From NCBI GenBank assembly GCA_050258375.1, contig JBLMYQ010000068.1:27913-91912 (forward strand): a stretch of 64,000 nt of DNA, in the 5' to 3' direction. A model generated the notes under the pieces. The model had not been told where the DNA came from. It saw only the letters and a list, made by a program, of their open reading frames with translations, and made no database searches. Each line of letters begins with the position of its first letter. The first letter of the stretch is position 1. The position numbers and the translations under genes are program-made. This DNA is from Deltaproteobacteria bacterium (GTDB lineage: Bacteria > Bacillota > Clostridia > Acetivibrionales > UBA4821). Of the stretch, positions 20,270 through 23,338 are shown in pieces.

Positions 20270-20626
20270 TTACTTTATATCTTGCGTAATAATTATGTCT
20301 GCCTGAGTATCTAAAATATTTTTAACTACTATTTGCCCTATACATAAAGGAGGCTTTAAAACTATATTCTTTAATTCATCAACTACATCCTTCGCAAGCT
20401 CTTTAGGTATAGGTTTGTTACTTTTGACACTGACCAAAGGCATCTTTGAATTTAAAACCTTTATTGTTGTTGTCACTACCCTTTCTGGCTTTGTTATTTC
20501 CTTTTCTGCATATGCTTTTCCTCTACTGCATAAAGCATTTTCAATACTTTCAATCTTTTCCTGTGAATGCTCAATATCCATATTACAACTATTCGGACAT
20601 CCTATGCAAGTAAGTTGAATTTTCAT
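20270..20626 (-). CDS. DUF1667-family small Cys-rich protein
   Basis: MKIQLTCIGCPNSCNMDIE... Start set at the ATG at 20626 (GGAGGA SD). Third member of the conserved FAD-oxidoreductase trio. Confidence 0.75.
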   Translation of the reverse strand: MKIQLTCIGCPNSCNMDIEHSQEKIESIENALCSRGKAYAEKEITKPERVVTTTIKVLNSKMPLVSVKSNKPIPKELAKDVVDELKNIVLKPPLCIGQIVVKNILDTQADIIITQDIK

Positions 20627-20642
20627 TTTATCCTCCAAAAAA

Positions 20643-21881
20643 TCATTGAAGCTCTATTTTTATATTATCACTATTTTTAATACTGTTTTTACTTATTTTT
20701 ATTTTAATCATTTCTGCCGGATTAACTTTTTTAAATTTAATTCTTGATATTTCCTTGTCTTGCTCATAAATAACCAAATCCTTATCATTTCCGGGCTCCA
20801 ATACCCTTAGAGAAATCTCAAAATCTGATTCTCCTGAAGCCCACTCTGGAAGAACATATCTTATTCCTCTGCCTGCATCCAATTTAATACCTGCCCGTTT
20901 TTGTTTAATTCCCTGCAAGTATTTCGCCGCAGCCCTACCTGCAAGTTCTCCCTCTTTGGAAACATTATCAACCAGATCATGAACATGCAGTACATTTCCA
21001 CATGCATATATTCCTTCAATACTGGTTTGACAGTTCTCATCAATAGCTGCTCCACCTGTAGTTTGATTCAGCTTTATTCCTGCCATGCCTGCCAATTCAT
21101 TTTCAGGTATAAGTCCAACTGACAAAAGCAATGTATCACATTCAATCCTTTGTGACTTCCCTTTTACTATTTTCCCTTCTTTGTTAAGCTTATTAATAAT
21201 AACAGCCTCTACTCTGTTTCTTCCTTCAATTTTTGTTACTGTATGACTAAGTAGCAGCGGTATATTAAAGTCTTCCAGGCATTGCTTGATATTTCTGGGT
21301 AGTCCGCTTGAATAAGGAAGCTTTTCAATAACTGCTGCAACCTCAGCACCTTCTAAGGTTAATCGCCTTGCCATAATAAGACCAATATCACCAGACCCTA
21401 AAATCACTACTTTTTTCCCGACCATTATATTGTGAACATTTATAAGATTTTGTGCTACTCCTGCTGTATAAATGCCAGCCGGTCTGCTGCCAGGAATCCC
21501 CAAGGCACCTCTTGTTCTTTCTCTGCACCCCATAGCAAGAATAACAGCCTTCGATTTGAATTTCATATATCCTTGCGGACTTGCCACAGCAACAATCTTA
21601 TCTCCTGTAACCCCTGTGACTGTGCTGTTTAACAGTACAGGTATTCCTTTAATCCTATCTATAAAAATTCCGGCATATTCAGGACCAGTTAGAGATTTTT
21701 TAAATTTAACAAGTCCAAATCCATCATGAATGCACTGGTTCAAGATTCCGCCAAGCCTTTTTTCCCTTTCGATTATAAGGATATCCTTTATACCATTCTT
21801 CTCCAACTCTTCTGCTGCTGCAAGCCCTGCCGGACCTCCGCCGATTATTATTACTTCCTTGTTTACTGCCTTAATCTCCAT
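20643..21881 (-). CDS. NAD(P)/FAD-dependent (pyridine nucleotide-disulfide type) oxidoreductase
   Basis: 412 aa. VIIIGGGPAGLAAA and VVILGSGDIGL double Rossmann motifs; ACGNVLHVHDLVD. Confidence 0.8.
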   Translation of the reverse strand: MEIKAVNKEVIIIGGGPAGLAAAEELEKNGIKDILIIEREKRLGGILNQCIHDGFGLVKFKKSLTGPEYAGIFIDRIKGIPVLLNSTVTGVTGDKIVAVASPQGYMKFKSKAVILAMGCRERTRGALGIPGSRPAGIYTAGVAQNLINVHNIMVGKKVVILGSGDIGLIMARRLTLEGAEVAAVIEKLPYSSGLPRNIKQCLEDFNIPLLLSHTVTKIEGRNRVEAVIINKLNKEGKIVKGKSQRIECDTLLLSVGLIPENELAGMAGIKLNQTTGGAAIDENCQTSIEGIYACGNVLHVHDLVDNVSKEGELAGRAAAKYLQGIKQKRAGIKLDAGRGIRYVLPEWASGESDFEISLRVLEPGNDKDLVIYEQDKEISRIKFKKVNPAEMIKIKISKNSIKNSDNIKIELQ

Positions 21882-21883
21882 AT

Positions 21884-23338
21884 CTATTTAACCCTCCCCG
21901 TAAACAAAGATGTCCCTTGCCCTGAATAGTTAATTTGTTCAGGTTCAAGATTTTTATCCTTTACAAGAAGGTTCACTATTCTAGTAAAGCAATAGCCTCC
22001 TTGACATCTTCCCATCATCGCTCTTGTACGATACTTGATTCCTGCAATAGTTTTAACACCAAGGGGGTTGTTTAAAGCATCTTTTATTTCCTTCAGTGTA
22101 ATTCCCTCACATCTGCAAACTATTTCTCCGTATTCCGGATTTTCTCTTATTAATTCTGCTTTTTCTTCTTCACTAAGTTCGCTAAATTTAGTCTGTTGTT
22201 TCCTTAGAGGATTAAAATCACTTCTTTTTTTCAAGGATTCTTTTTTATTGATAATATCAGTCACCATCTCTGCAATTACAGGTGTACTCGTTAATCCTGG
22301 AGATTCTACACCAATAAGGTTAACAAAGTTTTCAACCTCTTTTGATTCCTCAATAATGAAGTCACCAAATCCTCCAACCTTTTTGCCAACAAGCTTTGGT
22401 CTCACACCAGAATAATCTCTAATAAAATCCTTTCTCTCAATTAGCGGCAGCAGCTGCTTAGCCTCTTTATAAAGCTGTTCAAGTACTTTTTGTGTAGTCG
22501 AATAATTTTCTCTTTGATTTATATATTCTGCGCTTGGTCCAATCAGTATGTTTCCATCAATAGTTGTTGTAAGATGCACACCAAGGCCACCTTCTTCAGG
22601 TCTTGGTGCAGGATAAACCGGCATATTAAGGATACTGCTCACACGCTTATCCAAGATAAAATATTCCCCACGGCAGGGATGTATTCTATAGCCTTTTATT
22701 CCTGCCATTCCAGCTATTTTATCTGAAAAAAGACCTGCTGAATTTATTACATATTTTGAAATAAACATGCCGTTTGTTGTCTTAACATGAAACTTCCCAT
22801 CTTTATTTTTTATACCGACAACGGGTGTTTCAAGAAAGAATTTTACACCGTTATCTGCTGCATTTTCTGCAAGGGCAATAGTAAGACTATAAGGGCTGGT
22901 TACAGCTGTCCAAGGTGAATACAAGGCAGCTATTCCTCCAATATTTGGCTGCAGCTTCTCCGCCTCTTCTTTGCCTATGATTTCTAGTCCTTCAACACCA
23001 TTTTTATCCCCAATTTCTTTAAGCTTTTTTAGCCTTTCCAAATCAGCATTATCAAAAGCTACTACCAGCTTGCCTGTCTTTTTATAAGGAACGCCAAGTT
23101 CTTTACAGTAGCTTTTGAATCGTTTACAGCCCTCAACGCACAGCTTCGCTTTGACTGTTCCTTCCGTGCAATTAAATCCGGCATGAATGACACCGCTGTT
23201 CCTGCCGCTTGTCCCCATACCGACATCACTTTCCTTTTCGATAACTGCTGTATTTATATTGTATTTTGATAATTCACGTGCTATTGCACAGCCAACTACC
23301 CCTGCACCAATTATTATTATGTCAAATTGGTTTTTCAA
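21884..23338 (-). CDS. FAD-dependent glycerol-3-phosphate dehydrogenase/oxidase-like protein with a C-terminal BFD-like [2Fe-2S] domain
   Basis: FDIIIIGAGVVGCAIARELS...GTSGRNSGVIHAG; C-terminal VCRCEGIT...GRCQGGYC. Start set at the TTG at 23338 (GGAGG SD 7 nt upstream). Confidence 0.75.
   Translation of the reverse strand: MKNQFDIIIIGAGVVGCAIARELSKYNINTAVIEKESDVGMGTSGRNSGVIHAGFNCTEGTVKAKLCVEGCKRFKSYCKELGVPYKKTGKLVVAFDNADLERLKKLKEIGDKNGVEGLEIIGKEEAEKLQPNIGGIAALYSPWTAVTSPYSLTIALAENAADNGVKFFLETPVVGIKNKDGKFHVKTTNGMFISKYVINSAGLFSDKIAGMAGIKGYRIHPCRGEYFILDKRVSSILNMPVYPAPRPEEGGLGVHLTTTIDGNILIGPSAEYINQRENYSTTQKVLEQLYKEAKQLLPLIERKDFIRDYSGVRPKLVGKKVGGFGDFIIEESKEVENFVNLIGVESPGLTSTPVIAEMVTDIINKKESLKKRSDFNPLRKQQTKFSELSEEEKAELIRENPEYGEIVCRCEGITLKEIKDALNNPLGVKTIAGIKYRTRAMMGRCQGGYCFTRIVNLLVKDKNLEPEQINYSGQGTSLFTGRVK

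Follow-up and report, generated by a model that had tools for sequence, protein, structure and literature searches.

FngABC enzymes and 2-hydroxyglutarate dehydrogenases

The three-subunit FngABC of Pyrococcus furiosus (PF2005-PF2007) is an electron-bifurcating glycerol 3-phosphate (G3P) enzyme that depends on both ferredoxin (Fd) and NAD (Schut, Poole, Adams 2026, PMC13689815). It catalyses the readily reversible reaction G3P + 2 NAD+ + 2 Fd(red) <-> dihydroxyacetone phosphate (DHAP) + 2 NADH + 2 Fd(ox), with FAD and a [2Fe-2S] cluster in FngA, a bifurcating FAD and a proposed NAD site in FngB, and a [4Fe-4S] cluster in FngC, a DUF1667 protein proposed as the entry point of ferredoxin (PMC13689815). 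The same study counted 1,485 FngABC sets, mainly in Clostridia, many of which have no glycerol genes nearby and were guessed to use other polyols (PMC13689815). Here we consider a trio of this type at positions 20,270 to 23,338 of a 64,000-nucleotide stretch of DNA (the window) from a Deltaproteobacteria bacterium that GTDB places in the Clostridia (assembly GCA_050258375.1, contig JBLMYQ010000068.1), where it lies within a glycan operon.

A second group of enzymes bears on this trio. In Drosophila L-2-hydroxyglutarate dehydrogenase (dmL2HGDH), 2-oxoglutarate (2-OG) is contacted by Ser88, Tyr289 and His302 on the C1 carboxylate and by His92 on the C2 oxygen, while its C5 carboxylate is held by Arg393 and the main chain of Leu299 (PMC10726252). 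Bordetella Bp3253 retains all of these residues and the glycerol 3-phosphate oxidase GlpO retains part of them (PMC10726252). A link between 2-hydroxyglutarate (2-HG) and glycan synthesis is known from P. aeruginosa, in which WbpB reduces 2-OG to 2-HG, 2-HG inhibits WbpB, and loss of the D-2-hydroxyglutarate dehydrogenase D2HGDH lowers O-antigen (PMC8651671).

Our reading of the window trio is that it encodes a soluble flavin and iron-sulfur oxidoreductase of the FngABC family which would act on an L-2-hydroxy-dicarboxylic acid, most likely L-2-HG, and not on G3P, and which would help to balance the glycan pathway; taken as a whole, we hold this reading to be evenly poised between right and wrong. 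Our confidence is moderate in the enzyme itself, a ferredoxin- and NAD-linked L-2-HG/2-OG oxidoreductase, and low in its glycan role. The sequences themselves show the subunit architecture, the cofactor cysteines, the pocket residues of the L2HGDH type, the split from glpK-linked trios, the organic-acid genes around relatives and the recurrence in two further glycan loci; which acid is the substrate, whether electrons are bifurcated, which way the reaction runs and what it does for the glycan are inferred.

The window trio and its cofactor sites

The trio consists of three minus-strand genes, as seen from their open reading frames (ORFs) and Pfam domains:

21884-23338, minus strand: FngA-like catalytic subunit, 484 aa, FAD-binding DAO fold with a C-terminal BFD-type [2Fe-2S] domain (Pfam DAO 4.6e-75, Fer2_BFD 3.1e-10)
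20643-21881, minus strand: FngB-like subunit, 412 aa, two-Rossmann FAD/NAD(H) oxidoreductase (Pfam Pyr_redox_2 3.2e-35, Pyr_redox, NAD_binding_8)
20270-20638, minus strand: FngC-like subunit, 122 aa, Cys-rich (Pfam DUF1667 1.6e-28, 98.9 bits)

By sequence the trio is a member of the FngABC family, with the gene order A (DAO plus BFD), B (Pyr_redox_2), C (DUF1667) and all of the cofactor ligands present. FngA has the BFD cysteines CxC...Cx4C (C408, C410, C445, C450), FngB has two dinucleotide-binding stretches, with matches at residues 9-45 and 155-230, and FngC has the cysteines Cx2Cx3C...C (C11, C14, C18, C37), which are kept across relatives; the four BFD cysteines are conserved as well. FngB shares 50-68% identity with the B subunits of G3P-type and window-type trios alike. 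The roles of FngB and FngC are proposed here from those of the P. furiosus subunits, PF2007 being the counterpart of FngC. A Clostridiales lineage encodes B and C as a single protein of 517 aa (Pyr_redox_2 plus DUF1667; L041:10557-12110, L042:2964-4517), and the existence of this fusion supports a physical pairing of B and C; the neighbours of the fused gene encode a transaldolase, an AP_endonuc_2 TIM barrel, a short-chain dehydrogenase/reductase (SDR) and an iron-containing alcohol dehydrogenase.

A first-pass annotation of this DNA had placed three genes between a glycosyltransferase and asnB paralog 1 and had assigned them to the anaerobic G3P dehydrogenase type, and both statements are borne out, the architecture now being recognised as FngABC and relatives of the trio being found beside glpK. 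Its end coordinate of 23338 also agrees with the start of FngA that we prefer. The start chosen by the ORF finder, a TTG at 23356, probably lies too far upstream; with a GGAGG 7 nt ahead of it, the next TTG, at 23338, gives a protein of 484 aa, the length of its homologues.

The substrate pocket of FngA

The solved structures nearest to the window FngA by sequence are Bordetella Bp3253 (3dme), Drosophila L2HGDH (8w75) and Mycoplasma GlpO (4x9m). HMMER alignments place S48, H52, Y242, L252, H255 and R313 of the window FngA at all six 2-OG positions of dmL2HGDH, and none of the six varies among 31 aligned relatives. The loop of E. coli LhgD (b2660), an established L-2-HG dehydrogenase, reads IYPIPDPAMPFLGVHLT and that of the window FngA reads VYPAPRPEEGGLGVHLT, the two proteins having the Tyr/Leu/His set, the Ser, the His and the Arg in common, whereas Tyr242, Leu252 and His255 of the window FngA correspond to Phe, Lys and Ile in Mycoplasma GlpO. 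The lysine of the M. pneumoniae enzyme (Lys258 of MpGlpO) is presumably phosphate-binding.

The same residues divide the family. The FngA homologues of 40 related genomes fall into two tiers, at ~40-43% and ~59-63% identity to the window FngA; the lower tier includes examples directly beside a true glpK (G006, G013), and the upper tier stands alone in varied neighbourhoods, also in genomes with glpK elsewhere or with no glpK. Every member of the window tier has the loop VYPxPRPxxGGLGVHLT. At ~40-46% identity, all 11 of the trios that were read have GKG[IV] after a Phe-containing turn (e.g. IFQxP--xxMGKGILVT), in a loop two residues shorter, and four of these 11 GlpO-like trios adjoin a true glpK. 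A maximum-likelihood tree separates window-type from G3P-type FngA at 100/100 support, with the branching inside the 11-row clade of the window left unresolved. The AlphaFold model of FngA (pLDDT, the predicted local confidence, 87) has 3dme, L2HGDH and GlpO as its best matches in the Protein Data Bank, about equally; since the model matches both enzymes at similar scores, GlpO and L2HGDH are to be told apart by residues and not by fold. One further FngA, at ~9506 in L214 (G295:C1:766000-785999) and 46% identical to that of the window, fits neither pattern, GLGVH or GKG; GntR-like regulators flank it, an AEC transporter is encoded close by, and it may represent a third substrate type.

Host genome and glycerol metabolism

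The host genome (2.4 Mb, 100% complete by marker genes) contains exactly one such trio. A glycerol kinase model had no match in this genome, while it matched in 11 of 14 control genomes. Because the host has no glycerol kinase and only the one trio, the window trio is not a glycerol-catabolic copy. The first-pass annotation had asked whether the genome has a second copy beside glpK, which would mark the window copy as a dedicated one; that second copy is absent.

The main proposal of that annotation, that the trio oxidises G3P to DHAP as the supply of a C3 substituent, is not supported by these comparisons. The pocket has Tyr/Leu/His and not Phe/Lys/Ile, unlike that of both GlpO and the glpK-linked members examined, and the locus has no glycerophosphotransferase, serinol-type or C3-activating gene: among the ORFs scanned between 9.7 and 57.7 kb, no Pfam family for CDP-glycerol synthesis, glycerophosphate transfer, the serinol-phosphate pathway or hydroxy-acid activation was found, four of these ORFs having no Pfam family at all. 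The four lie at 9719-11878 (719 aa), 25721-26557 (278 aa), 30563-31867 (434 aa) and 36471-37157 (228 aa); three were also blank at E 0.01, the threshold applied to the 719-aa ORF having been 1e-5.

Breadth and neighbourhood of the window-type clade

The clade was sampled through the 120 nearest database clusters, the 80 nearest loci in species-representative genomes and 80 metagenome loci, ~280 relatives in all. The Tyr/Leu/His pattern was present in 118/120 of the clusters, 80/80 of the genome loci and 77/80 of the metagenome loci, and none of the relatives of this type that were examined has a true glpK beside the trio. What recurs instead are genes of regulation and organic-acid metabolism. 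GntR/FCD regulators lie near the trio at ~23/80 genome loci and about 34-36/80 metagenome loci, and an Iso_dh-family dehydrogenase at 23/80 metagenome loci; other recurrent neighbours encode succinyl-CoA ligase, an HpaB/AbfD-like protein, AEC-family transporters and a nickel-pincer LarA-like isomerase. This isomerase belongs to NCBIfam group 22 (NF052515, 522 bits against a cut-off of 400), and the two closest relatives of the window FngA (76% and 73% identical) each lie immediately behind its gene. Every LarA homologue that has been characterised is a racemase or epimerase of 2-hydroxy acids (PMC11770544).

Three independent lines, namely the pocket residues, the absent link to glpK and the acid-metabolism neighbours, point to a 2-hydroxy-dicarboxylate, most simply L-2-HG, and away from G3P.

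Some of these neighbourhoods are conserved in detail. The order GntR/FCD regulator, Iso_dh, trio of the L-2-HG type is kept among L136-L187, many of them Atribacterota-like metagenome contigs (e.g. L186), and by its score of 438.6 bits to NF002898 the Iso_dh neighbour resembles isopropylmalate or tartrate dehydrogenase. In the Desulfobacterales loci L084, L104 and L195, and in others, the gene immediately before the trio encodes an HpaB/AbfD-like protein (478 aa), and genes for succinyl-CoA ligase subunits and a GntR regulator are close by. The Desulfobacterales neighbourhood suggests a C4/C5 dicarboxylate pathway.

The glycan operon

In the window the trio is set between a glycosyltransferase of the GT4 family upstream and AsnB paralog 1 downstream:

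23415-24539, minus strand: GT4-family glycosyltransferase, directly upstream of the trio (Pfam Glyco_transf_4)
18338-20218, minus strand: AsnB paralog 1, a glutamine-hydrolysing amidotransferase and the last gene of the operon (Pfam and NCBIfam)
18297-18319, minus strand: intrinsic-terminator-like hairpin with a 9-pair stem, 5 G-C pairs and a T-rich tail (terminator scan)

The gaps are 76 nt from the GT4 gene to FngA (with the start at 23338), 2 nt from A to B, 4 nt from B to C and 51 nt from C to AsnB1. The hairpin behind AsnB1 is the sole intergenic one of its kind on the coding strand, the other minus-strand matches falling within genes, and so the trio and AsnB1 are the last four genes of a long transcription unit. 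A promoter scan near the trio was uninformative (29 sites observed against 25.3 expected).

At the head of the operon, 29 kb from the trio, stands a pathway block for the UDP-linked diacetamido-uronic acid UDP-GlcNAc3NAcA (GlcNAc, N-acetylglucosamine), followed by a second group of three genes, two of which have orthologues beside the trio in other glycan loci:

52402-56629, minus strand: UDP-GlcNAc3NAcA pathway block, at the head of the operon shared with the trio (Pfam)
55514-56629, minus strand: aminotransferase of this block (Pfam)
54863-55441, minus strand: acetyltransferase of this block (Pfam)
53728-54801, minus strand: WlbA-type 3-dehydrogenase (matches to 3q2k, 427 bits, and 3q2i, 409 bits, the WlbA of B. 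pertussis and C. violaceum)
52402-53724, minus strand: UDP-GlcNAc 6-dehydrogenase (Pfam)
51403-52374, minus strand: SDR epimerase-like gene, orthologous to the gene after the trio in L034 and L036
50188-51402, minus strand: DegT aminotransferase, within the group at 48291-52374
48291-50174, minus strand: AsnB paralog 4, orthologous to the AsnB of L034 and L036

In all, the operon has four AsnB paralogs and four DegT aminotransferases, three of the latter lying beyond the pathway block, and FemAB/GNAT-type acyl transferases are also present at the locus. The G+C content of the trio and AsnB1 is 35.5-37.1% (18001-24000), like that of the pathway block at 52-57 kb and of the window flanks, and the glycosyltransferase and tailoring block between them (24001-50000) has 28-32%.

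Co-occurrence of the trio with AsnB-type genes in other glycan loci, which the first-pass annotation had anticipated, is found twice. Two metagenome glycan loci of the diacetamido-uronic-acid type, L036 and L034, contain the trio (FngA 70% and 68% identical), in the order pathway genes (UDP-GlcNAc 6-dehydrogenase or acetyltransferase), trio, SDR, AsnB, Wzm, Wzt. The SDRs of L036 and L034 are 84% and 71% identical to the window gene at 51403-52374, and their AsnBs are 67% and 65% identical to the window AsnB4; the window AsnB1 is not of this AsnB type. Since the trio follows WbpA in L034 and L036 and lies 29 kb downstream in the window, an orthologous gene set holds it at two positions. Within the window's own family, four genomes have no trio and no close homologues of AsnB1 and WlbA, and in this lineage the trio travels with a variable island.

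The two metagenome loci have peculiarities of their own. In L034 the UDP-GlcNAc dehydrogenase (6807-8119) and FngB (11461-12705) are split or truncated, through a frameshift or an assembly error, and this copy of the trio may not be intact. In L036 a single gene (5944-7503, 519 aa) encodes both a GFO_IDH_MocA dehydrogenase and a WlbB-type acetyltransferase as a fusion; its dehydrogenase half is a GnnA-like third type that matches both solved WlbA families poorly.

A possible mechanism

The 2-OG/2-HG couple lies near the pyruvate/lactate couple, and NAD+ alone would then be a poor oxidant. By analogy with P. furiosus, FngA would oxidise the 2-hydroxy acid at its FAD and pass the electrons on through its [2Fe-2S] cluster, FngC would take electrons from reduced ferredoxin via a [4Fe-4S] cluster, and FngB would join both streams in the reduction of NAD+. 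The overall reaction would be L-2-HG + 2 NAD+ + 2 Fd(red) <-> 2-OG + 2 NADH + 2 Fd(ox), and would be reversible. Such a ferredoxin-assisted mechanism would solve for 2-HG the thermodynamic problem that FngABC solves for G3P.

In the glycan operon, the amino-uronic-acid pathway releases NADH at its 6- and 3-dehydrogenases and 2-OG at the four DegT aminotransferases, and the two together would favour the conversion of 2-OG to 2-HG, through side reactions or through the trio itself in the bifurcating direction. Through the trio, 2-OG and 2-HG would be linked as a redox couple with the pools of NAD and ferredoxin, and the trio would either clear inhibitory 2-HG to 2-OG or regenerate NAD+ with 2-OG as the electron sink. 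It would then be an anaerobe's counterpart of the coupling between D2HGDH and WbpB in P. aeruginosa.

A simpler version of this proposal, in which the trio recycles the 2-HG made by a WbpB-type 3-dehydrogenase, was considered and rejected, the Pseudomonas product being the D-enantiomer, the window dehydrogenase being of the WlbA type and that of L036 GnnA-like. A racemase that might bridge D- and L-2-HG was likewise sought, and the host genome has no match to Lar_N (LarA-type racemase), nor to FAD-oxidase_C (D2HGDH-type).

Weighing the alternatives

Several observations count against an L-2-HG enzyme with a role in glycan synthesis. On the side of the enzyme, FngA scores 255.7 bits against the NCBIfam LhgO model NF008726 (cut-off 299), over residues 12-293 only, and it is more similar overall to glpK-linked FngA (42% identity) than to E. 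coli LhgD (30%). Its pocket residues predict a 2-hydroxy-dicarboxylate, with which L-malate or another acid would also be compatible. On the side of the glycan, the 2-HG formed by P. aeruginosa WbpB is D-2-HG and not L-2-HG (PMC8651671), and enzymes of the B. pertussis/C. violaceum WlbA type, to which the window 3-dehydrogenase belongs, are reported to use a sequential mechanism, as against the ping-pong mechanism of WbpB with 2-OG as the oxidant of NADH (PMC10622841). The AsnB4-type module occurs very widely, with 7890 database clusters at E <= 1e-200, which weakens the link to the glycan, and the idea that the AsnB4/SDR module always comes with the trio had to be given up: in the DNA at hand, L220, whose AsnB4 is 83% identical and whose gene order is that of the window, has no trio between WbpA and the SDR, and the Peptococcaceae locus L221 has none within 10 kb. 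One insertion event may account for all three glycan-embedded copies, and no glycan locus was found among 160 further loci of the window's clade. The AsnB4 type is in addition unusually conserved, with many clusters 66-70% identical from Nitrospirota, Planctomycetota (Scalindua), Deltaproteobacteria and Firmicutes. The WlbA enzymes of B. pertussis and C. violaceum are not known to require 2-OG.

In a different explanation, the trio is a general housekeeping or repair enzyme for 2-HG or other 2-hydroxy acids that is carried as a passenger in a mobile glycan island, co-transcribed with it and of no glycan-specific role. Nearly all relatives stand alone or in organic-acid contexts, the glycan module exists without the trio, and a single ancestral insertion would fit a tree in which the 11-row clade is not resolved. 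The trio is nevertheless held intact within one orthologous gene set at two positions, it is preceded by a gap of only 76 nt with no terminator, and same-family genomes that lack the island genes lack the trio as well, so that it is not a housekeeping gene of the lineage. We think a passenger unlikely, though by some way the most credible of the alternatives, and functional coupling to the glycan and mere passage are rated not far apart. A change of substrate or direction is rather improbable in our view: the enzyme would act on L-malate, L-glycerate, tartrate or 2-hydroxyadipate, or would run in the reducing direction and make an L-2-hydroxy acid as an acyl group for the glycan. The pocket defines a carboxylate beside the hydroxyl and a distal anion, and not 2-HG alone; the isopropylmalate/tartrate-like Iso_dh and the uncharacterised LarA group 22 isomerase among the neighbours would suit other acids, the FngABC reaction is readily reversible, and the acyl transferases and four AsnB amidotransferases of the locus could offer a use for the product. 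Yet all six contacts of the highly specific L2HGDH are kept, among them the Arg and Leu at the C5 carboxylate, and Pfam scans of the window found no acid-activating enzyme (CoA ligase, acyl carrier protein) for a hydroxy acid. A classical FngABC that oxidises G3P, so that DHAP or a different C3 unit can go into a substituent such as serinol, glyceroyl or glycerol phosphate, seems to us very improbable, even though the characterised FngABC members oxidise G3P, some database records label relatives 'glycerol-3-phosphate dehydrogenase', and the best NCBIfam score of FngA is to type 2 GlpO (NF033460, 282.7 bits). That score is far under the cut-off of 460 bits, the Phe/Lys/Ile of GlpO and of all glpK-linked trios examined is replaced, neither the host nor the clade offers a glycerol kinase link, and the window has no gene for CDP-glycerol, glycerophosphate transfer or serinol in Pfam scans. 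DHAP is, moreover, a glycolytic intermediate that needs no dedicated source.

Implications

The databases and the sole biochemical paper on the family treat all DUF1667 trios as G3P or polyol dehydrogenases, and we found no description of a 2-hydroxyglutarate-type FngABC in the literature searched on DUF1667 and on L-2-HG in connection with bifurcation and ferredoxin. The residue signature Tyr / Leu-Gly-Val-His, as opposed to Phe / Lys-Gly-Ile, sets apart a second, large clade. It is possible, if on the doubtful side, that this large and so far unrecognised clade in anaerobes (Clostridia, Atribacterota, Desulfobacterales) consists of ferredoxin- and NAD-coupled L-2-HG/2-OG oxidoreductases, recruited in a few glycan islands to balance 2-OG and NADH. 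If ferredoxin-aided oxidation of L-2-HG is true, it shows how strict anaerobes could handle 2-HG, since they have neither quinones nor oxygen and the step demands a stronger oxidant than NAD+ by itself. For the window, the structural prediction of the glycan would lose its proposed glycerol-derived decoration and would gain a testable link between 2-OG metabolism and amino-sugar synthesis.

Comparison with known systems

The P. furiosus FngABC and the G3P dehydrogenase complex of Thermococcus kodakarensis resemble the window trio in their three subunits, gene order, domains and four FngC cysteines. Against bacterial glpK-linked members, the window subunits are ~42% (A), 50-57% (B) and 34-40% (C) identical. 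The window type differs from P. furiosus-type FngABC in its pocket, with Tyr/Leu/His and a loop two residues longer in place of Phe/Lys/Ile, and in its setting, being never beside glpK, present here in a host with no glycerol kinase, and a clade of its own at 100/100. The type 2 GlpO of M. pneumoniae (4X9M) shares the fold (TM-score, a measure of structural similarity, 0.84 by target) and the catalytic His, the Ser and the distal Arg, but its Phe/Lys/Ile is replaced in the window by Tyr/Leu/His, and FngA falls below the cut-off of the corresponding model, NF033460.

With the L2HGDH enzymes (Drosophila and human, 8W75/8W78; LhgD; Bp3253, 3DME) the window FngA has in common the fold of the D-amino-acid oxidase type, the best match being 3dme (TM-score by target 0.87), followed by 8w7f and 8w78, as well as the six 2-OG contacts and a Tyr...Leu-Gly-Val-His loop of equal length. 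It is ~30% identical to them overall. L2HGDH is a single subunit with no iron-sulfur domains, whereas the window FngA adds a BFD [2Fe-2S] tail and the partners FngB and FngC, and its electrons would reach NAD+ with the help of ferredoxin and not quinone, electron-transferring flavoprotein or O2. The D2HGDH-WbpB system of Pseudomonas shares with the window the class of sugar, UDP-GlcNAc3NAcA, with whose pathway the window operon starts, and it demonstrates that turnover between 2-HG and 2-OG can be limiting for the synthesis of such sugars. Its D2HGDH is an enzyme of the vanillyl-alcohol oxidase family that acts on the D-enantiomer and is encoded elsewhere, while the window trio is predicted to be of the L-type and lies inside the locus; and Pseudomonas WbpB is a ping-pong enzyme that uses 2-OG, while the window 3-dehydrogenase is of the sequential WlbA type.

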